DNA of 64,000 nucleotides from Protoeuglena noctilucae (Eukaryota), in assembly GCA_958009085.1 (NCBI GenBank), contig OY253680.1:62001-126000 (forward strand), written 5' to 3'. Below the pieces are notes generated by a model, which ran no database searches, was not told the DNA's origin, and was given only the letters and a program-made list of their open reading frames with translations. The translations under genes were made by a program, and so were the position numbers. Each line of letters starts with the position of its first letter. Within the stretch, counting starts at the first letter, position 1. This document shows, piece after piece, positions 2,969 to 35,040 of the stretch.

Positions 2969-3250
2969 CTTGGGCCGAGCCGGGCCTCACGATAAGCAAA
3001 AGTTAGCTTGTGGATGGCCGCAGATGACGTGGATCGTCGCCAGGCTTTGGCTACCTAGAAGGCCCTGGCAATCTGTTGCTTCGGCGTGATCTGTCTGCTT
3101 TGCAGTGTTTGAAAGTAGAACTACATGCCTCAGCGCTGGCATATCAAAGCACGCCGACAGGTCCGTCGATAGAGAGAGGAAAGTGAACACAAGTTGACTG
3201 GGGAACGCATGAACCTTGCACAGGTTCGCGTGCTTGAGCAATGCTGTCCA

Positions 3251-4451
3251 TCAGACCCTGGGTCGCTTGCGGCCCCGCTCCTGCGCCCCTACGCCCTCCT
3301 GCACGCACAGAGGAACGTCGCTTGCGTTCTCTCAACCGCTGAGAGGCCACAAACACAGCAACCCACGCTGCCAGCACGGCACCCTCGTGCATCGCTGACG
3401 GCACCGCAGGGCTCCCTATCCACACCGCCAGTGCGTGCATTGCAGGTCGCATGCAGCCATGTCCTCGCAGCCAAAGACCCCGAGCCTGCGTGCTTATCTC
3501 GCGTGCACGAAAATAAACCCTCTGATAGACGCTCACCTTTGGCTTCAGTGCCCACCGCTCGTGCAAGTGAGACACGACCCGGCCCAGGCCCACCAGCACC
3601 CGCTCCTCGTTCGTCATGCCCATCACCGCTGCGAGAGGGACAGGAACGGCGTCGGAGTTGCGTGGCATTCAGTTTGCAGGCGACAGCACCGGGCGCGCAC
3701 AGCACGATGCATGCGAGAGGAGCCACGGGGCCTGCCTCACGGCACGTTACCTGTGTGACGGTCGCAGCGCGGCAGGCAGACCCACGACATGCACCCAAGA
3801 TCTCAAGTCATTTTAGCATGCCCATCGACGCACGGTCCGGTCTCGCACATCCCAAGACCACTCACCCGGCGAGGACGTGTCCGTTTGCACCCAGGCGTGA
3901 CGCACCACCACGTCCCTGTGAGCAAACCGTGCACCTCGCGTGGCCGGCGCTGCGCAACGCAAGCCCCGCGGCTACCCAGAGCCCCCCCACAACTCGCCTG
4001 TACCGCGCCGCGAAGGTCTGGAGCGACAGGGGCCCTAGGCCGTGGTCCTCCCCAGGCAAGGAGTTGACACGGTGGGCCAGCTCGTACCAGTGCGCGCAGC
4101 AGGTCCGCAAGTCGAAGCTGCTCGGACCCGCCTCGATCTCCTTCCGCACCGCCGCGCGGAAAGCTGCAGGGAGCAACGGCGTGACCATCCCGCGCTGCAC
4201 GAGGGGCGGCACCATCCAGAAGGGCACCTCGACGACCGATTCCGCCGGAAGCTGCAGAGAATGGTGCGGGAGGATTGTTCGCATTATACCAGCTCGTCCA
4301 TTGCCGCGTTCGCCGCTGCGCGTGCCCTCACGTCCTCGGTGTCCGCGTTGGGATCAAGCGCCTTGCCCAGCCCCGTCGCGGCCGTGTTGAAGCGGACGGG
4401 CACCGCGTGCGAGTCGGCGAACGCCACCTCGATGTTCCAGTAGTCGGACAT
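3251..4451 (-). CDS. PSF3: GINS complex subunit 3 (Psf3)
   Basis: Translates as MSDYWNIEVAFAD..GLGKALDP|LPAESVVEVPFWM..FDLR..WYEL..QTFAARYR..MTNEERVL, with a last exon ending RKRPRV*. One internal junction is unresolved. Confidence 0.85.
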
Positions 4452-5003
4452 GGCGGTGCGACGGCCGCGCAACGCCCCGGCTCGCGCGCGAGGTTCAAAC
4501 AAACGGCAGCGACAGCTGCGGTCTCCGGGAAAGGACCGGGCGACGTCCCGAGCGTCAGCGAACCTCCTCGGTCAAGCGCGATGCAACAGATGCAGGACCG
4601 ACGGACGGCCGCGTCTCCGTGGCTCCCTCCCCTGAGCTGGGAACGAATCAGCGGCTGTCTTGACCTGGCTCCTGCTGGACTCTGCTGCACGTCGTGGCGC
4701 CTAGCTGCAGGACTGAGACGCCGGAATGGTGCTGCGGAAGTCTTGTCGGGTCGTGGCGCCTGCATGAGGGCAAGCCTGCGTCAGAGAAACCGGGTCCAGC
4801 TGGATGACACTGGCCAGCATGTCACATCTCACTGGATGTGACAGCGTGGCAGATGTGCTGCTGCATGTGTATGCCGCTGCGCAATTGCGATGCTTGCCTT
4901 CAACCGCTAGCCCCCGAGCCTACGCCCAATTGCACTAGGCCCTCGCTGCGCTGCGCCATGCATGGTGGCCTCAACCCAAGGAATCCCTCAGGCAAAGAAC
5001 AGC

Positions 5004-7171
5004 TCATGCCAGCACGGGGAGGTTCTCGTGCTCGCGGCGGCGGTCGTGGCGGTCCTGCTCGTCCTGCTGGCGGCGGCGGTCGTCGTCGCGGTCGTCCTCG
5101 CGCTCGCTGCGGGAGTCCCGGCGGCGGCGCTCGTCCTCGCGGTCGTCGTCACGGCGGCGGCGGTCGTGGCGGTCGTCCTCGCGGTCGTCGTCGCGCTCGT
5201 TGCGGGCCTCGCGGCGGCGGCGGTTGTCGCGCTCCTCCTCGCGGTCCTCGTCCCAGCGGCGGTCCCTGTGCGGAAGCAAGACCACCAAGACCCTCAACAG
5301 GGACCACTCCAACGGCATCCACAGGAAACGGCGCCGATATTGACCCGCAAACAAAGCACTCCGGTGCGGCAAGTGCGCCCCTGCGCTTGGCCCAGCATGC
5401 CAGTGAGCTGCACGTGCCCCCACCAGGCACAAGCACTCACCGGCGGTCCTCGCGATCGTCGTCGCGCTCGTTGCGGGCGTCCCGGCGGCGGCGGTTGTCG
5501 CGGTCGTCCTCCCGGTCGTCGTCGCGGCGGCGGCGGTTGTCGCGCTCATCGTCGCGGTCCTCGCGCTCGTTGCGGGCCTCGCGGCGGCGGCGCTCGTCGT
5601 GCTCGTCGTCGCGGTCGTCGTTGCGGCGGCGGCGGTTGTCCCGCTCGTCGTCGCGCTCGTCGTCCCGGCGGCGGTCCCTGCAGAGGAGCACGGACACACA
5701 GCATGTTGCCCAGCATGTGCCCAGCTAACGGCACGTGTATCATTACACAGCACAAGCGTGGCGCACATGCGCTGGCACCTTCCCCAGAGCACTTAACAGC
5801 AAACATAGCACCCTGGTCCCTCACCGGCGGTCGTCGCGGTCCTCGTCGCGCTCGTTGCGGGCCTCCCGGCGGCGGCGCTCGTCATGCTCCTCGTCGCGCT
5901 CGTCGTTGCGGCGGCGGCGGTCCTCGCGGTCGTCCTCCCTGTCGTCGTTGCGGCGGCGGCGGTTGTCACGCTCGTCGTCGCGGTCCTCCCGCTCGTTGCG
6001 GGCATCGTTCCGGCGGCGGTCCCTGGGTGCCAGCAAGACCAGCAGTCGCTCTTGAGAATGACCCTGACAAGCGGCGCATGTGTTATGCCGCGACGGACAG
6101 GCACATATGTCATGGGCATAGCTCAGCACTACACTCAGCGCGCCACTGCAAGCACTCGGCACAGCGGCTGCTCACCGGCGGTCCTCGCGGTCGTCCTCCC
6201 GGTCGTCGTTGCGGCGGCGGCGGTTGTCGCGCTCGTCCTCCGGCTCGTTGCGGGCGTCCCGGCGGCGGCGGTCGTCGCGGTCGTCCTCACGGTCCTCGTT
6301 GCGGCGGCGGTCCCTGTGCACGCTCAAGGGCGGAGGCTGTCTGCAACAGCCTGATATCACCACACACGACGTCGCAGCTCCCAGAGGACCGACAGCGAAA
6401 CCAGCCACGATGCCCAGTCTGCTCTGCCGCGCACACCACCTGTCTCCACAGACTCATGCAACCTGCGCCTGCGCATATTCACTCACCGGCGGTCCTCGCG
6501 GTCGTCGTTGCGGTCGTCACGCAGGTTCCGGGCGTCCCGGCGGCGGCGCTCGTCCTCCCTGTCGTCGTCACGGCGGCGGCGGCTGTCGCGCTCATCCTCG
6601 CGGTCGTCGTCGCGCAGGTTACGGGCGTCCCGGCGGCGGCGGTCCTCGCGGTCGTCCTCCGGCTCGTTGCGGGCGTCCCGGCGGCGGCGGTCGTCGCGGT
6701 CGTCCTCGCGGTCATCGTTGCGGCGGCGGCGGTTGTCGCGCTCATCGTCGCGTTCGTCGTCCCGGTAGTTGCGGGCCTCGCGGCGGCGGTTGTCGCGCTC
6801 GTCCTCGCGGTCCTCGTCCCACCGGCGGTCCCTGCGTTCAGATGCAGCACGTCACGTCACAGGGTCTGCTGCCAGTAGCCTTGCCACGTCGTCACAACAC
6901 AGGATCCATAAACACTGCCACCACTGACAGCCTGGCATCCTCGGAAGCAGCGCATGGCTCACCGGCGCTCGTCGCGGTCGTCGCAGAGGGCGCGCTCCAG
7001 GCGCTCCACGGAGTGGAAGGCGCTGTTGAGCTGGTCGATGGCGCTCCTCGCCAGGGACACGTTGTGGCGCGCGTCGCGGTGGGCCTGGACGGGGGCAAGG
7101 GTGCGGCGGCCCCCGCGGACGGCGGGCACGCCGGCCCGGGCGGCCAGGACGTTGGCGGTGGCGGTGAGCAT
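5004..7171 (-). CDS. Arg/Asp/Glu-rich repeat protein (~462 aa) with a transit-peptide-like N-terminus
   Basis: Exons are 7171-6963, 6831-6487, 6313-6176, 6022-5825, 5677-5441 and 5265-5004. All introns are phase 2, with CGCCG|GTGAG donors and CAG|GGACCGC acceptors. The N-terminus is MLTATANVLAARAGVPAVRGGRRTLAPVQA. Confidence 0.8.
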
Positions 7172-7844
7172 CTCCTTTGACCTGCGGGCGGGCGACCGTA
7201 TCCGAGAGATCCAGACCACAAGCAAGTCAAATATAGTCGAATGAGCCGCATCCGGGGCCAGGAAAGCGCGGATCGGCCCCGCGAGGCGGTCCCCGAGATT
7301 GTTACTCGCACGATAACAAAGTCGTGGCCGCGCCCAATCCGGGCCGCATTCGCCACGGCGCGCAGCGATCGCGCCTATAACGACGAATTAGAAGCGCTGT
7401 GCGGAGGGCGATTGTCGAAACATGGCGTGATAGGCCGCGGCGGTTTGGGTCGAGTCACATGGGCGGCGGCCCGACCCGCGCGGCGCCGGATCCGCAAACG
7501 AGCGCCACACCCGGCAAAAACATCGCCGAATGTAGTTCCGGGTGGGCGAGATCGGGCAAAGGCGCAGCCATCGGGCTGCGCGGAGCCCGATGAAGGGCCA
7601 TCCCGGAAAAGGCTGCGCAGCGCGCGATGCGCGCCCGATGCGAGGATCCGAACGCGGCAGCAGCTCACCTTTATTGCTGGGAGGCGTCTCCGAGTCGAAA
7701 AATAGGCAGGGAAGGGGCGCCCCGCGGCCTATTTGAGGCCTGGCTGGAGCTGGGGAAGGCCCTAGGGGATGACCCGGGCATATCCTGTCCGCGTCAGCAC
7801 GGGCGTCGCGACCTCCCAGCCCGTGATGCGGGCCCTCCGCGCCG

Positions 7845-9956
7845 TCACTCGTCCCCGGCGCTCGCCATGCTCTCCCGCAGGTCGTAGCTGATGAAGGCGT
7901 TCATGTCGCTCAGCATGCCCACCACCACAGCACCCCTCTGCGAGGGCGCAGCGGGGGAGATCGATCCATGCGCGGCTCGAATCGCGCGCTCCAGCCCGGC
8001 ACCCGCTCCCCCCCCCGCTGACGTGGCAGGCTAACATGGAGTCAGGGTTGCCCTGACTCGGGGCCGCTGTCACAGGAACGCAGCTGAGGCCTGCGCGCAA
8101 GCGCCTGACGAGCCAAGCGGCGGCCCTGTTTGATGGAAAGCCTCCCACCCGCCCTCAAACATCCACCTCTCACCTTGGACGCCACCACGTCCTGCAGCGT
8201 GATGCGCAGTGGGTCCCTGGGCTTGACCATGTCGAATATCTCGTCCTTGACGTCCTCGACGCGGTAATCGGCGTCCGGATTGGCCTCCCGGATCGTCTCG
8301 CAGACGGACTTGAACAGCTGGTAGACGTCCGCTTGCGTGAGGTACCCCTTGCAGCCCAGGTCCAGCACGGGCCAGAAGTAGGCGAGGGCCCGCGGCGTCA
8401 TGCGGCCCTCCCACGCGATGAGGAAGGTCAGGAAATCCCGGAACGTCATGTAGGCCCCCCGGCGGCGCCCGGTGGCGTGCTCCTGGAACAGCCGCGACGC
8501 GAACAGCGGCGACAGGCGGCACACGGGCAGCCGGGCGAACTCCTCCCGTGACAGCAGGCCGTCCCTGTCCACGTCGAGGTCGTCAAACATGGAATAGAGC
8601 CACCGGGACTTCTGCACGCTGAACCAGTTCTCCACCAGCCGCCGCATGCTGGCCTCGTCGGCGCCTCCCAGCTCCCGCAGCAGGTGGAGCTCGGAGGTGA
8701 CGGGGGAGACGAGGAGGTCGCGGATGGGGAGGCGGCCGTTGCGGGCGTGGTAGAAGGCGAACTTGAGCACGCTCATGTCGAGCCACGTGGGGACGAAGGA
8801 GCTGAGGTCTTCTGCCACGGGGGCGTCTGTGGGGGCAGAGAGGGTGGTGGGCGGTGATGTGCCAGAAAGGGGAGGCGTGGGAGCTACAGAAGTTGCGACT
8901 GGGGCATCGGGGAAGAGAGCTGGCTGTGAAAGTGTCTGCATGGAGCACAGGGGCCAGTTGGCAGCCCCGCCCGTGCGCCACCCACCCGGGCCGGCCCGGC
9001 TGCCGAAGAGCGGCGCAAGGGGACGCATCAGCAGCATGGCATCTTCCAAATAGGCACTCAGCTCGTCCAGGGTCAGCTTCCCGTCTCCGTCGGCGTCTGC
9101 GAGCAATGCATGGTTCTCGTGGCACCCAAGCGCACACCGCTCTGACCGTGGCAGGAACGTTGCGGCAGGCCTGGCGGGGCCCGCATCACGCAAGGGCAGC
9201 GGCAGCGGCGCGCGTCACCGTATTTCGCGAGATCGAGCCTCAGCCGCGCCGTGAAGCACTGGCGCATGAGGAGCTCGAAGAGGGAGAGGGCCGAGATGCG
9301 GCCGCGGTCGTCCTTGGCCAGCCGCAAGAAGGTGGACGCGCGCAGGAAGCCGTGGACCCTGCGCCGCGCTCGGGCACCGAATGTCTCCTGGAAACGGTCG
9401 GTGACGCGACAGAAGCCCTCGTAGCTGAGCATCTCCTGGTCCGCCCCGGCGTCCGAAGACGCCTCTTTGAGCCAGAACCAAATCGATTCGAGCTCCTCCT
9501 GACTCAGGACCGCGTCCGCGTGGTCTTCCAGCCACATGGCGCGGACGGCCGCCTCGCAGCGCGCGCGGAGGCTCCCGGGGCGCGGGCGGGGGCGGAAGAA
9601 CGTTGGCAGCGAGGCGCCCGCGTTGCTAGAAGGGCCGGCCTCCGCGCGCCGCAGCGTCGCCAGCTCCGTCATTCCGCTGATGTCGCTCTCATCGGTCTCG
9701 CTTCCTTCCGCCGCGTCCGCGGAGGGCCCCTGGGAGCAGCGACGCCGCTGTAACAACGAGCGCCGGAGCGACGCGCTGGGCGGTGGCCGCGTCGGCCACA
9801 CGACAGCAATGCGTGAACGGTCGACTGCCGATGCGGGCAGCAGCGGAGCGCGAATGACAGGGCGCGCGCGAGGGCTCGCACCGGTTCTCGCTGCGACTCC
9901 TCGGCGTCGGCAGCGCGAGCCAGGAGGGCTGCCGCGAGGTCCCGGTGACGCGGCAT
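7845..9956 (-). CDS. PPP2R3C: PP2A B'' regulatory subunit (TON2/FASS/PPP2R3C type)
   Basis: Motifs WLEDHADAVLSQEEL, EF-hands DADGDGKLT and DVDRDGLLS, ENWFS, YFWPVLD, EDVKDEIFDMVKP, and a C-terminal GMLSDMNAFISYDLRE. The start codon is inferred from in-frame splicing. Confidence 0.88.
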
Positions 9957-11053
9957 GATTCGGCGCGCCAAGCCAGGGGACGGTAGCTACGAATCGCGGT
10001 GCAAGGGTGGAGGCGTGGTCGTCCCAGCGCTTCGAAGTGTGCGCGCCCCAACTGGGCCGGCAAGTGAGGGAAAGGCCCACCGGATGCAATGGCGGCGTGC
10101 TTTACGTGTCCTTGTCGCAACTAGAGAGGAAAGCCGCCATTATCGCGTCGGCGCACCTCGCGATTCCGACGCGAAGCTTGCGCCGACTCGCCAGATCACC
10201 TTGGCACGCCGCCTTGCCCAAACGAGATGCCCTTCTCCTCACGAGTACCTGGACCTCGAAGACGTAAGTGGGGCTTGCAAGCAACTGTGAATAGTTGAGC
10301 TGAGAAGCAAAAACTGGTCAAGCTTGGTGGAAATGGATCAGAACACGGCCCTGTCGCTAGCCAAGACAGTGTGGGACTACATGGATGCCCAGGCCGCATC
10401 AGTGGAGGCCGGAGACGACCAGGGCGGGGTGAGCAGGAGCTGGGATTTGCATATAGCCGCAGCAACGATACAAGGTTCTCGTCGCGAAAAGATTTAACGA
10501 TGGAAAGAACGATGACCGTCGTGGCAACGCCTCTGAGTGCAGGGAAGCGGAGCTGCAGCGGAGGGACCGAACGATGGGGAGCCTTCGAAGGCGGAGGGGG
10601 CCAAGGGGAAGAAAAAGCGGGCAAGGAAGCCCCTCACAGCCCAGGTGATGCGGGGGAGTGGGAACGGATGCCATGAAGGCCAGCCGCACGGCGCCTGCGG
10701 ACTCGTGCGCTGGGACCGCGCTGCCCTCATCGCTCGCGTCTTCGCGGGCCGCAGAAAGATGCCGTGCCCTTGATGACCTCGCTTTTGGAATCCTTCGTCG
10801 ATCAGGCCATGCAGCGCGCCATAGCCCGCGCGCGGGCGGAGGGGGAGGGGCAAGTCCTGGGCGCGCACGTCGAGCAGATCCTCCCGCAGCTCATCCTCGA
10901 TTTCTTTTGACAGGTTCGAGTTTCCAACGTCGTTGATTCCTCGATTCGATTAATTCGCTTCCTCGGTTCCGTCTCCTAGAGCTCGCGCAAAGCGCCTGCG
11001 CGCCTGCGCAATTGCCGCGCTCTCTGCAGCCCCAGCCCTAGCCATCCCTAGCC

Positions 11054-14000: not shown

Positions 14001-17000
14001 CAGAGCACGAAAAGAGGGAGAAGTTGCATATTATTGTAATTGTACTCACAATAGCCTTGTATTTAATCCCATCCCACCCCGTCGACTCCCATCGCATCCC
14101 AGATTCTCCACCTCATAATCAACCATCTAGCCGTCATCAACAAATCACCAAAACCCCTCTCATCCATATCTCACTCTTGGTCAGCATGTCCCTCTCCATC
14201 TCCAGGTCGTGCATGATGCGCAATAATCAACTAACTAGTAATAAACTGAGTATCCCTCTCATCCATATCTCACCCCTCGTCAGTCTGTCCCTCTCCATCT
14301 CCAGGTCGTGCATGATGCGCATCTGCCGCTGCCCCTCGACCTGGTACCCCGCAATCTCGTGAGTCAGGTTGACCTTGTTGTTCTCCACCACCTTGATCAA
14401 ATCCGCGATCTTCACCGTCTGGGCGTCCTTGCTCGTCCTGTGGTGCGAAGGGAAAGACAAGAGGGTCGGTGTGTGTGCAGAAGAACGTGCTGGTCATCGC
14501 TCGTTGTGTCGTGATCGCGAACACATCGATGGCAGTGTGAGGGCTGAGTGCTTAGTCGTTTACAGCTCGTGGCATGGCACGTCTCACCTCAGCTTGTTCA
14601 GCACGTCCCTCTCCCTCACATATCCGTCCTGCCGCTTCTTCAGCAACTCCACCTCCTTCACCACCAACTCATTGTCCCTCTCCAGCGCAGCAACCTCCGC
14701 CTGCATGGTGGGAAACGCGACACTTGCGCAAAGCGCGACGACGCATAGTATACGCATAGTGCTATGGTTGACGCGAGCGCAACGGGTGTGTGAGAGGTGC
14801 GAGTGTGCAAGTGGTTGCATCGCTTGCCCCACATCCCTCAACTCCATCTCCTGCAACTGCGCCTCGTTTCTCCCCTTACCCTCATCCCCATGGGACCCAC
14901 GTCCCATGTCCCCGCAACCCTCATCCACCCCTCTCACCTGCAGCTGCGCCTTGTCCTTCTCCATACCCTCTTCCACACCCTCATCTCTCCCTCATCTCTC
15001 ACCTGCAGCTGCGCCTTGTCCTTCTCCATACCCTCTTCCACACCCTCATCTCTCCCTCATCTCTCACCTGCAGCTGCGCCTTGTCCTTCTCCAAATCCAC
15101 CTTGCGCCTCTGCATCCGCGCCGTCATCTGCAGCGTCGTCTCCCGTATCTTCTGCGTCTTGCCGATCTCCTCTCTCACGCGGGCCCCCTCCTCCTCGAAC
15201 TGACGAATCAACACCTCGCGCTTGGCTGGGGGCAGGGGGGTCACACAAGGGCAATCTCGTCTCGATATCGTCACCAAACCACGCGCAATTCGCGTTGCAT
15301 TAACTTGTCCACACATCATGTCACCCCCCTCACCGTTCTCCGCCACGTACTGCGTGTTGCGGTGCGTCTGCTCGTGCAGCTCCTCCGTCAGCCGCCCCGC
15401 CTCGGCGTTCCTCTCGTTCACCTCCTTGCGCAGCTTGTCCACCGTAGACGTCGCCTCGCGCACCTTCACCTCCGCCGCTGCGAGATGGGGGGTGCCAGTC
15501 TTGATGCTGAGGGTCGCCTTACCGCAGGCGAGGTGTGCGCTTGGCTCGCTCACCCTGACCTGCAGCATCCACCATAGCGGCCCCGTCAGCCACTTCACAA
15601 CCACACGCGCCCCCTTACAGGCGCCCCACCTCAGACACCCCCTCACCTCGCCCATTCTCCCCCACAATCTGACAGCCACACGCGTCCCCTCACCTCGCAC
15701 TTTCTCCCCCATGGCCTCATTCTCGAGCTGCTGCTCCACCAGGTGCGCCTGCATCTGCTCCAACTGCCCACGCAAGTCCACCACCTCCCGCTGCGGGGGG
15801 GAGCGACGAGCGAGAAGGTGGATGCGAGACGCAGGTGTAGAGGTTGGATGCGGGGCAGAAGGGTTATAGTGCCCAGGTGTGGTGGGTGGCTGTCAAACAC
15901 AGCCATGGCGAATAGGCATTGCAGGTGGCTGTGACAGGGATGCCCATGCAACCAGGCCCGTCCTAACCCCGCATGCATCCACTGTCTAGTCTCGCCCCGT
16001 CCCACCTCGAGCCTCGTGCGCCGCTCCTCCTCCCGCCGCCCCTCGTTGACCTTGTCCTTGCGCCGCTGCTCAATGTTGTTCTTGTCCTGCGAACCGTCAT
16101 CGATAATGGATCGTTGCAACGCAGGTAGACACATGCATTCTCGGAATGTTATCCTCGGCCGCCCGGCGTCAAACCCACACCGCACCGCACAGCACCGCGC
16201 AAAGGCACGTTAGCGCCGGTTTCCCTCGAACCCACCCAGACCGCCCCTCACCAGGACGAGCTCCTGTCTCTCGCGCTCGATGCGGGTGATTTTGGCCTGG
16301 ATCTCGGTTTCCTCCGCCCTCAGCCGCTGGATGCTGTCCAGCGTGGCCTCTTGCTCGCCTGCAATAACGTCGCGCTGCGAAACCAGGTCCCGCAGCTCCG
16401 CCTCCTCCTCCAGAACGATGCCCTCGCCCGTCTCGACCTGCCGCGTCAGCGCAGCGACCTCGGAACGCAGCGCGCGGATGCTCCGGCGCAGCTCCAGCTC
16501 CCTGCAGAGTGGGTGTCACGGGCGGCGCAGTAGCACTGCAGCGCTCGGCGGCGAGTCCGGCAGCGCGTGGAATGCCGCACGCACCTCCGTCGCGACGTCT
16601 CCGCGTCCTCCCAGGCCTTCTGGACCTCCTTCCGCAGAGATCGAATGACCGCCTCCTCATCGTCGTTCTTCATCACCACGTTGGCCGCCACGCGCTCCTT
16701 CTGCGCCACCAGCTCCGCCTCAATCTCCAGACCTGCGAAAGTGGTTCCGGCGCCGCGTGGAGCCGGGAAGCGCCCCGTGCAGCGGAGGGGTCCATGCCAG
16801 GCCATCGCAGGCGCGGCCCTCACGCTTGTTCTGCAGGTCCTCCTCGGCGTCGTGCTGCTCCCGGACCGCCGTCAGCGCTGCCCGGAATATCTCCGTGGCC
16901 ACGTCCGAATTGTCGAGCTCCTTAAGCTCCTCCAGCACCTGCAGAGCAAGCGGGGAGGGCGCGCGGCACTCGGCATCGCGTGCAGCGCGTCTCCCGGCCC

Positions 17001-21489: not shown

Positions 21490-21560
21490 GCTCCGGTGGT
21501 CTAGGGGTAGAATACTCGCTTGCCATGCGAGAGACCCGGGTTCGATTCCCGGCCGAAGCA
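21490..21560 (+). tRNA. trnG-GCC: tRNA-Gly (GCC)
   Basis: The sequence folds as a cloverleaf with anticodon arm CTCGC-TTGCCAT-GCGAG and T arm CCGGG-TTCGATT-CCCGG. There is one C4:A69 acceptor-stem mismatch. TTTT lies at 21595-21598 and a TATA-like tract near 21433. Confidence 0.93.
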
Positions 21561-23187: not shown

Positions 23188-26100
23188 CTAGTCCACCGTC
23201 ACCACCACACACTCCTTGGCGACAAAGGCAGCATTTATCACGACAAGCATCCCCTCTAGTTCCTCTGCCAGCGGACTTTTTCTGCCCCTGTCGCCTTCCG
23301 CCACCCCCAGCTCACACAGCGCGCCAAGGGAGAGCCTGAGGGACACGACCGTCTGGGCCGCCAGCTTGCACGGCAAACAAAGGACGTCATCCCTCGTGAA
23401 TGCCATTGAAGAAAACTCTATCTCGGCCGACATTTTGCACACCAGGGCTGGGGGCGTCGCGTGCATGTCCCAGGCATACAGAGTGTTCTCCATGCCGTAA
23501 GCCAGAACGCTGCCGGTCGAGCTCACAGCCATGAACTGCGGAGCGCGGTCAATGGGAGCAGGGACGGCAGCGAAGCCCGCACCTCCGACTTGGAAGGTCC
23601 AGAGGTGGTGCTCTTGCTGTGAAAGGTCAAACTCGTCTCTGTCGTCTCTGCTTCTAGCTGCGACCGCCATCCATCCGCCATCGTAAGACAGTGCTGCGCA
23701 CACGCCCATCATAGCCCTTCCTTTGGGATCGGTGCGAGGCAGCGTCTGCCTGACCTCCCAAGTGGCCGTATCCATTTGCACCAAACTATCGCTGCTGTTC
23801 TGCCACACCCAAGCCTGCTCCCCATCTGGACTCAGGGCGAGGACCGTGCCATCGCTACCTACATCGTCGCCCCACACGACTCTCGCTTCCTCTTCCGAAG
23901 ACGGGACCCAGGCGTACAGAGTGCGCATGATTAGCATGAGGACCTTGTCCCCCCTGGCAAATACGACAGGACGTCTACCCCACCATACCAACTCAAAAGA
24001 CCCCGGCACCTTGGCGCTAGCAACCATCTCCCCTGTCGCCATGTCCCATATCTGCGCCATCCCAGCGTCTGTGACAAGCACGACCCGTGCCTCGTCTGGC
24101 ACTGCAGCCGCAGCTATGATGCCACCAGTCACATGCATCTGCATCTGGCACGCGCGCTGGCCCGTCGGGGCATCCACAACAACCGCTGTGCTCGTAGTGC
24201 CCGAATCACCCTCCCTACTGGAACTCAGCACCAGCAAATGCCCGGTTCCACCGGGCGACAAAAAGACCTCATCGCTCACTACAGCGGCGGCAGCTTTCTC
24301 CCCAACCACGACAGGCTCAACGGACAGCTGGCCAAAAGTAGGCAATGCATCCTATACCAACGTCGTCCCAACAGTTGTGCTGCAAGCAATCTTGCTCCAG
24401 GCAGGGTCCATACATATAGCACCCGGGGCTCCGTTTGCCCGAAACACAGTGCGTACCCCACCCGAAGATGTGTCATGCAAACGCAGCTCGAAACGCTCGT
24501 CGCCCACCATGCTTGCTATGAGCAACAAGGTCCCTTCTGGACTGAAACACACTGGGGTGTCCCTGTCTTCAAGGGGAATTCTTGCCCGCTCTTGCAGCGT
24601 CTCTGCATCATACACAACCGCGCCCTTGGCTGTCCTGGTGGCCACCAGCGAACCAGTGCCGCTGACCCAGGAGCGCACGCCATCTATGGTCCCACGATGC
24701 TCACCCGCCTTCGTGTCCCAGACCAGCACACTCCCGATGGTGGGCACTGCTGCCGTCAACACGGTGCCCGCGACACTGGCTGCGATGCCCAGGTTCGGTC
24801 CAAGCAGCTTATTGTCGTCGTCGTCGTCGTCATCAGGAAAAGCAAGCTCAAGAGACCCCTCCAATTCTGCCCGCAGTTGCCCCGATTGCACGTCGAAAAC
24901 CTGTGCCGAGCTGCCCCGGTGCTTTACAGCCACCCACGTGCCATCTCCGCCCATCATCCCCAGCTGCACGACCAAGGGCGTTCCCACATTGGGTGCACCG
25001 AGTGCACCAGGGACCGCCAGCTCCTGCCACACTCCGGGCACACTCCATTGACAGTACCCTTGCAAAGTGACGGCCCCCACAGCCTTCCCTCCATCCACGA
25101 ACCCGGCATCGTGCACGAAGTCAACATCTTCTTTGAGGGTCTGGCAAACTCCAGAGGCACAGTCAACGATGTGGAGCTCATGTCGAGTCCACATCATCAG
25201 CATAGCCCCGTCGGGACTGAACTGCATCCCTTTCGCCTGGTTGCCGACTGAAGGCACCTCCGTGACCACGGTCAAAGTGCCCGTGATGGTGTCAAAGAGA
25301 CCGACGGTCTCCCTATCCACGACCGCCAGCATGTCGCCCTTGGGCGACAAAGCCGTGACACTCACAAATCCAGTCAGCAGTACTTGCGCCTCCGGGAAGT
25401 CATCCATGGCCCCCACGCGCACCCTGTCGCCCCTCAGCCCCTGACGCACGCAAGCATCCCCAGCAGCGTGCATCCATGTGCCCTTTGGCGCCAACCCCGC
25501 CGCATGGACAGCAAGGCTGGGGTTGTTGACGAGGGCAGCGGAGAAACACCTGGGAGTGACACACAGCATGGAGAGGGTGACGTGAGCTTCATGCGCAGAT
25601 TGCGCCGTGGACGAGCATGTCACCCATCCCCACCGCCGCTAACCTCAGCCACGCCCTCGTCTCCTGCGCCAAGGCGGCCTTGGGATGTGACGCCGTCGTC
25701 AACGCCTGCACCGCCCTCGCCACGTCCCTGACCAGCCGCTGCATCTCCCCCGCCTCCGCACACGCCCGCACGTACCCCAGGCTCGTGCACACCATCGCAA
25801 CCACGTCCAGCTCTCCAGCCTCCTCCGCGTGGTGCAGCGTGTACACGCTGGGATACGCCCCAAGCGTCTCCACCAATGTCCCGCTCCTCCCTCCCACCCC
25901 CGCCGCCTCCACCTTGCGCCCCCACACTGCGGCATGCACCGCGTGGCCCACTCGCACGTCCACGTGCCACCCTGACCCCTTGTCCTCCGCCAGCCAGTCC
26001 ACCACAGACCTGCAAAGCGCGCAAAAGAATGCGTCAGGCCCACTCCTCTGCTCTGCTCTACACGTCACCAGCTGCCGCGCCTCTAGCAACGCACGCTCAC

Positions 26101-34840: not shown

Positions 34841-35040
34841 NNNNNNNNNNNNNNNNNNNNNNNNNNNNNNNNNNNNNNNNNNNNNNNNNNNNNNNNNNNN
34901 NNNNNNNNNNNNNNNNNNNNNNNNNNNNNNNNNNNNNNNNNNNNNNNNNNNNNNNNNNNNNNNNNNNNNNNNNNNNNNNNNNNNNNNNNNNNNNNNNNNN
35001 NNNNNNNNNNNNNNNNNNNNNNNNNNNNNNNNNNNNNNNN
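34841..35040. other. Assembly gap (200 N)
   Basis: A run of N hides the HRD1 3' end and possibly the transposon right end. Confidence 1.

Follow-up and report, generated by a model that had tools for sequence, protein, structure and literature searches.

A periodic arginine- and acid-rich repeat protein with a predicted plastid leader and oligomeric helix, encoded by a chlorophyte gene of duplicated exons

What a protein made largely of arginine and acidic residues would do in a green alga, and in which compartment, is the question raised by a gene on the minus strand of the window (the whole 64,000-nt stretch of DNA analysed here). The host genome comprises 26.3 Mb in 27 contigs and holds two RbcS loci and many LHC matches; its RbcS is nearest to the green-algal entries 8q04, 9hvm, 1ir2 and 1gk8, the first and last of which we take to be Chlorella and Chlamydomonas RbcS entries, respectively. 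The host was therefore classed as a compact chlorophyte. The gene is single-copy (pattern and protein searches of its own genome return itself), the other pattern matches in the genome being two isolated ones and one in locus L080.

Gene structure, transcript and reading frame

The charge-repeat gene is real, and was read from the window sequence as six coding exons joined in one frame of 462 aa (Table 1). The four internal exons and the terminal exon carry identical junctions, as first described: the decamers CAG/GGACCGC and CGCCG/GTGAG (slash, splice boundary) number five each on the window's minus strand, always within this gene, against a chance expectation of 0.008 each per 2.2 kb of strand, and the plus strand has one extra copy of the acceptor decamer, at 25008. 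The five coding introns are all in phase 2, with lengths of 131–175 nt and GC contents of 0.58–0.63. They have diverged in sequence, again as first described, and among the 10 pairs compared a trace of likeness was seen in just introns 3 and 5 (global z 3.5) and introns 4 and 5 (local p 0.03). The exons share exact stretches of 23–56 nt. The pattern is that of tandem duplication of one phase-2 exon-intron unit followed by intron drift, which accounts for the symmetry of the exons and does not require regulated skipping.

Table 1. Features of the charge-repeat gene in window coordinates.
Feature	Position	Strand	Basis
Non-coding 5' exon	7669..7752	-	X3 contig joint to ATG exon; donor AAAG/GTGAG; 7752 is the contig stop in X3, not a mapped transcript 5' end
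5'UTR intron, 487 nt, GT..AG	7182..7668	-	Joint skipping 487 nt in one X3 contig
ATG exon, 209 nt	7171-6963	-	Sequence
Predicted plastid transit peptide, residues 1-30, ends V-Q-A	7082..7171	-	Leader features
Predicted amphipathic heptad helix, residues 31-69, ends in tail of repeat unit	6963..7081	-	AF2 and four-copy model
Intron 1, 131 nt, phase 2	6832..6962	-	Spliced in X1
Repeat exon (coding exon 2), 345 nt, 46 R + 51 D/E	6487..6831	-	Sequence; model without structure
Intron 2, 173 nt, phase 2	6314..6486	-	Sequence; RNA contigs stop at borders with exon-type overhangs
Repeat exon (coding exon 3), 138 nt	6176..6313	-	Sequence; exon-shaped contig in X3
Intron 3, 153 nt, phase 2	6023..6175	-	Sequence; exon-type overhangs only
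Repeat exon (coding exon 4), 198 nt	5825..6022	-	Sequence and RNA contigs
Intron 4, 147 nt, phase 2	5678..5824	-	Spliced in X1 and X3
Repeat exon (coding exon 5), 237 nt	5441..5677	-	Sequence and RNA contigs
Intron 5, 175 nt, phase 2	5266..5440	-	Spliced in X1 and X3
Terminal coding exon, 262 nt: repeats, short non-polar C-terminus LPVLA, stop	5004..5265	-	Sequence
3'UTR	4842..5003	-	Contigs end at 4893-4894 (X1/X3) and 4842 (X2); true end not mapped

RNA evidence was taken at contig level from 4 of 12 listed runs (X1–X4), all marine metatranscriptomes of a single study. Contigs join coding intron 1 (X1), coding introns 4 and 5 (X1 and X3) and the UTR intron (X3), and the spliced minus-strand transcript expected earlier was thus observed; the three joined coding introns, of five, have CT..AC ends as read on the plus strand. 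Introns 2 and 3 gave only exon-type overhangs and no full joint, because their junctions share about 30 nt. The ATG exon, formerly counted as exon 1, is preceded by the UTR intron, and the spliced leader carries an in-frame stop ahead of the ATG. Should the transcript begin as far upstream as the ATG at 7781 (minus), that ATG would open a uORF of 36 codons (7781–7669 and 7181–7171) with its stop immediately ahead of the main ATG. No more than about 90 nt separate the 5' exon from the stop of the upstream gene (about 7845). Within the 3'UTR, TGCAA occurs at 4934 and TGTAA is absent. Loose ends of X1 and X3 contigs that read as other R/D repeats were set aside as probably derived from other organisms, and runs X9–X12 (same species label, guessed to be RNA) contained next to none of the gene's words and were not counted as evidence.

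The proposal that protein length is tuned by in-frame exon skipping was examined by way of skip joints, of which 10 are possible; nine create 6–16 new 31-mers, and skipping of the 138-nt exon creates none and is invisible to 31-mers. Among contigs of the four runs 0 of the 9 detectable joints were present, a count limited by the loss of rare forms from contigs. Each retained intron would stop the frame immediately (70, 185, 231, 297 and 376 aa). Contigs of X2 and X4 read through introns; these may be DNA, hence no claim of intron retention is made. In an X4 contig with intron sequence, exon 5 jumps back into exon 3 (window 5524/6300) to give a hybrid of the first 154 nt of exon 5 and the last 125 nt of exon 3 (279 nt, in frame); this single contig may represent an unequal crossing-over (repeat-number) allele or a chimera.

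The reading frame was assessed from exon-to-exon DNA alignments, in which all but 3 of the 1685 aligned nt (1682) keep register and 131 of 210 mismatches fall at codon position 3. The 175 codon differences include 45 synonymous, 65 D/E and 22 D/N changes (synonymous plus D/E, 110/175), these pairwise counts being non-independent events, and the Arg codons used are CGC, CGG, CGT and AGG. The R/D/E frame is under protein-level selection, with Arg and acidic positions kept. Two other readings, an Ala/Thr frame of the spliced message (open for 369 codons from an internal Met) and an antisense strand reading as Arg/Ser runs, were rejected because the joints are CT..AC on the plus strand and the third-position variation fits the R/D/E frame.

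The upstream neighbour (about 7845–10100, minus) is an EF-hand gene (Pfam EF-hand families) whose product presumably resembles a PP2A B''-type regulatory subunit, and the downstream neighbour (about 3500–4451, minus) is weakly GINS Psf3-like (PF22466, E 0.092), with an X1 contig extending from it to 4704; no functional link between either and the charge-repeat gene is visible. An Rfam scan of window positions 3000–10000 gave no match. Elsewhere in the window are a perfect 65-nt repeat of 2.5 copies (14931–15093), which on the minus strand seems to duplicate the end of an exon together with the GTGAG donor and is either a recent duplication or an assembly artefact, a tRNA-Gly(GCC) gene (21490–21560, +) and a 200-N assembly gap (34841–35040).

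Predicted leader, helix and charged arm

Residues 1–30 contain no acidic residue, as had been noted for this N-terminus ending PVQA; the first basic residue is at position 12, five residues are Pro or Gly, and V-Q-A occupies positions 28–30. A V-x-A end is a feature of chlorophyte plastid-targeted leaders, and is also present in the genome's own plastid peptides. The leader was compared with N-termini of the same genome, hand-picked from candidate ATGs of ATP synthase, RbcS and LHC loci (some cut by introns); Rieske loci were excluded for their ambiguous starts. With no basic residue among its first ten and a hydrophobic moment of 0.27, it stands closer to the nine plastid N-termini (0–1 basic, moments 0.30–0.58) than to the two mitochondrial ones (2 basic, RR start at 3–5, moments 0.50 and 0.80). 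The N-terminus is transit-peptide-like, as first proposed, and the comparison, on a small sample of 9 versus 2, appears to favour the plastid. The acid-free leader, uncharged start, central Arg and V-x-A end are those of chlorophyte plastid-targeted proteins. Algal transit peptides are described as having an Arg-positive centre and as often needing unstructured sequence beyond the cut (PMC9133816); the helix straight after the predicted cut is a mild caution for plastid import. That the same protein is mitochondrial or dual-targeted was judged very unlikely: its Arg-only, acid-free leader with an M-L start recalls the genome's OSCP presequence, but no basic residue precedes position 12 and the moment falls well below both mitochondrial values.

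A predicted helix of 39 residues, absent from the earlier account, is likewise encoded in the ATG exon. Residues 31–69 were modelled by AF2 as a confident helix (pLDDT 92–98), with V38, A41, I45, L48, F52, V55 and L62 at a/d positions and small or hydrophobic residues at g positions. A four-copy complex model scored 0.74 versus 0.02 for the best of 3 controls; the four-copy runs had contact agreement of at least 91% and pLDDT no lower than 81, with an antiparallel arrangement of the contacts (48-48, 41-55, 38-59). Calibration was done on two copies, where the present model has four: 21 of 30 microbial pairs attained the mark applied to this score and none of 23 single chains did so; for eukaryotes, 17 of 29 pairs attained it, as did just 1 of 7 lacking an older solved relative and none of 30 single chains. 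The passed test supports predicted self-association of the helix and does not fix the chain number; the score may mirror resemblance to coiled coils of solved structure, by which any amphipathic heptad helix may pass.

The arm (residues 65–453, 389 aa) is 41% Arg and 46% Asp/Glu with no Lys (f+ 0.41, f- 0.46, FCR 0.86, NCPR -0.046) and has 5 hydrophobic residues; the whole protein contains 168 Arg, 184 acids and 0 Lys at a net charge of -16, the mature protein has a pI of 5.3, and there are only 4 aromatics. Coding exon 2, modelled from the single sequence of this one exon, gave no structure or helix (mean pLDDT 40), in keeping with the disordered tail foreseen in the preliminary description. 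Two unit types, with cores RRRxARN and RRRxDDRE, alternate along the arm, and the autocorrelation of charge has maxima at lags of 14 and 16, a repeat of ~15 residues; the repeat peptide quoted earlier begins with N in exon 5, not D. The R and D/E blocks on which that account rested are present but short: runs of at least three number 23 for R and 32 for acids (15.6 and 19.9 in shuffles), with maximum lengths of 4 and 3. Kappa of the arm (own implementation) is 0.079 versus 0.096 ± 0.016 in 60 shuffles, and the standard deviation of net charge in 15-residue windows is 1.49 versus 3.51 ± 0.39, with 0 of 1000 shuffles as low. The arm is thus periodic, each ~15-residue repeat neutralising itself, and not block-segregated.

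This bears on the earlier argument that the protein is blocky and so forms a condensate. Electrostatic demixing is placed, in the cited portion of PMC7503639, at its best for kappa 0.1–0.3 and is lost at 0.053 as cited there; the arm lies below that range and not above its own shuffles, so the argument finds no support in that form, low kappa counting against blockiness as the reason for condensation. The predicted oligomer helix is a better argument for assembly, in favour of which the all-Arg chemistry also counts. The fully charged chain closes with the non-polar LPVLA (window 5004–5030, minus). This tail is reminiscent of the C-terminal degrons that Tsp/Clp-type proteases recognise.

Relatives and known families

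The homologue search with exon 1 advised in the preliminary description returned no relative. The ATG-exon peptide had no homologue among longer proteins (417 candidates) and matched only itself among near-length proteins (5 candidates), and phmmer against 1.84 billion representatives gave two hits, the protein itself and a 24-residue match in the repeat-like ORF P0003, which was rejected as a homologue. No homologue of exon 2 was found among 7999 scored, nor of the protein in the metagenome and viral scans; none of the 7 matches that the repeat pattern had in metagenomes stood among R/D/E repeats, and the ESM Atlas gave no usable hit, generic helix matches only. Orphan status is provisional, as low complexity blunts such searches and databases are poor in spliced algal proteins. 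Pfam searches of all six coding exons gave no family at E<=0.1 (one hit, DUF3185, at E 1.4) and no LEA or dehydrin signature.

For comparison with nuclear proteins an internal control was available in L080:844-1821 (G000:C17), an RD/RS-rich domain followed by the start of an RRM, which we take to be RBM39-like. The two share about 40% Arg (0.41 in the charge-repeat protein, 0.42 in L080), many acids, almost no Lys, disorder and ~24% N. Their dipeptide grammar differs, with shares in the charge-repeat protein and L080, respectively, of 0.18 and 0.01 for RR, 0.01 and 0.13 for RS plus SR, and 0.22 and 0.02 for acid-acid; Arg-rich domains of mixed charge (R-MCDs) are built of alternating RD/RE/RS dipeptides, the present arm of Arg3-4 patches with a 14–16 residue period. 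It also differs from L080 in being net negative rather than positive, in having no RRM, and in its plastid-type leader and own predicted oligomer helix. The match to a nuclear SR/RED family that would have contradicted the first reading is accordingly absent, on both the Pfam result and the RS plus SR share. A nuclear or cytosolic place (in speckles or the nucleolus) for this Arg-rich mixed-charge protein, with a leader that is not a working transit peptide, was considered quite unlikely: the Arg share is that of L080 and the 23 runs of at least three Arg could serve as nuclear signals, but it has no RRM or other Pfam family, its grammar and net charge are not those of L080, and it has a sharp acid-free leader of 30 residues that ends V-Q-A.

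Pyrenoid linkers (EPYC1, CsLinker) are likewise lineage-restricted, disordered plastid repeat proteins, and a role as a Rubisco linker would suit a repetitive, disordered, apparently plastid-targeted protein in a chlorophyte with green-algal-like RbcS. Such linkers need repeated structured elements 20–120 residues apart (PMC11570498). Here there are no repeated hydrophobic helices: one helix is predicted, the repeat model has none, and the repeats are ~15 residues long and 86% charged with the 5 hydrophobic residues in 389 noted above, which makes this role most improbable. On the features tested, the protein belongs neither with the nuclear SR/RD proteins nor with cyanophycin, the linkers of pyrenoids or the LEA/dehydrin families. 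In its working the protein would be most like the R-MCDs, by analogy with those treated in part of 10.1101/2023.08.21.554177. Searches of the open-access literature (supplements apart) brought up no account of an Arg-rich repeat protein of mixed charge that is targeted to plastids, or of an algal store that resembles cyanophycin and is made on ribosomes; subscription papers or algal proteome tables could carry an annotation.

Possible roles in the plastid

The reading tentatively preferred, and held as a possibility, is a plastid-imported, star-shaped polyampholyte scaffold that forms a dense stromal phase with polyanion clients. Residues 1–30 would carry the protein into the chloroplast and be cut off after V-Q-A, and residues 31–69 would hold several chains together, in the model as an antiparallel tetramer. 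From each of these chains would extend a disordered arm of ~390 residues in which one Arg3-4 patch per ~15-residue unit is balanced by adjacent acids, so that the product would be a star-shaped, multivalent, near-neutral polyampholyte. The Arg patches would have as their binding partners the carboxylates on other arms and the phosphates in RNA, DNA or polyphosphate of the plastid; the resulting stromal phase would be dense and sensitive to salt and pH, and the role of the scaffold structural. Its mode would be the principle of nuclear Arg-rich mixed-charge domains moved to the plastid, with valence set by repeat number and changing mainly via unequal recombination between exons rather than regulated skipping. 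Arg-rich mixed-charge domains contribute to speckle condensation, as outlined in 10.1101/2023.08.21.554177, and chloroplast condensates exist, the cpSG scaffold being listed as unknown in PMC13170208. Against the scaffold stand a kappa below the most favourable demixing range, the net acidic mature protein, which is a poor fit for nucleic-acid binding, and the presence of only four aromatics.

The scaffold shares its self-assembly step with a second reading, that of a cyanophycin analogue. Cyanophycin is a non-ribosomal poly-Asp with Arg side chains in isopeptide linkage, made by CphA1; ribosomal synthesis and import are costly for a nitrogen store. A ribosome-made analogue, an inert Arg/carboxylate plastid granule laid down under N excess and proteolysed in shortage, seems somewhat unlikely, and so, in the same measure, does its fuller form, a gene-encoded re-invention of cyanophycin that is plastid-imported, self-bundling, sized by cassette number and degraded from its non-polar C-terminus. 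The mature protein is 24.1% N (C:N 2.2) and carries 2.26 N per residue versus 1.33 in other exons (2670 residues); those exons have 125 Lys and 138 Arg where this protein has 0 and 168, and 35 of its 53 uncharged residues bear side-chain N versus 14% in the other exons. Cyanophycin is given as ~23% N and as made insoluble at neutral pH by the opposite charges it carries, the soluble form being Lys-rich (PMC13548846, in part), and as 80–400 dipeptides long (PMC9262961, in part), a range that takes in the 168 Arg and 184 acids. The likeness thus extends to an Arg:acid ratio near 1:1, about 170 pairs per chain, 23–24% N, zwitterionic character and the absence of Lys; every repeat is self-neutral, and cyanophycin synthetase is absent from the genome, where the best score is 33 bits against a cut-off of 850. 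The chain is, unlike cyanophycin, a gene-encoded linear alpha-peptide with Glu and Asn and no isopeptide bonds. The RD/RS domain of L080 is equally N-rich (24.6% N, 42% Arg, 1% Lys), and composition therefore cannot tell a nitrogen store from an R-MCD. The absence of Lys may come from the founding repeat, a bulk store would call for less than a gene in single copy whose motifs and period are fixed, and the algal nitrogen stores described in the cited part of 10.1101/2025.11.02.686124 are guanine crystals and free Arg.

A stress-protective role, also raised at the outset, would make the protein a soluble, heat-stable stromal shield of Hero or LEA type whose well-mixed charged arms prevent client aggregation under salt, heat or drying. 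Like Hero proteins, LEA proteins and dehydrins it is very highly charged, disordered and of low complexity; from the combination of low kappa and very high charge, chains are predicted to be expanded and to attract one another weakly, and highly charged Hero proteins antagonise condensation (PMC10052238). The Hero mechanism there rests on repulsion, whereas this chain is near neutral; it is moreover Arg-only and of strict period, has no LEA/dehydrin Pfam match, and carries a predicted oligomer hub that shielding would not need. The shield was accordingly regarded as rather doubtful.

The scaffold and the nitrogen store are both cheap to test with recombinant protein. If the protein is a scaffold, the nuclear R-MCD principle would have been carried into the chloroplast, and the gene would provide a natural test of whether Arg chemistry and a tetramer hub suffice for condensation of a chain that is self-neutral and low in kappa. 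In the case of a nitrogen store, a single-gene N-rich polymer would constitute a new N-storage route in marine picoplankton.
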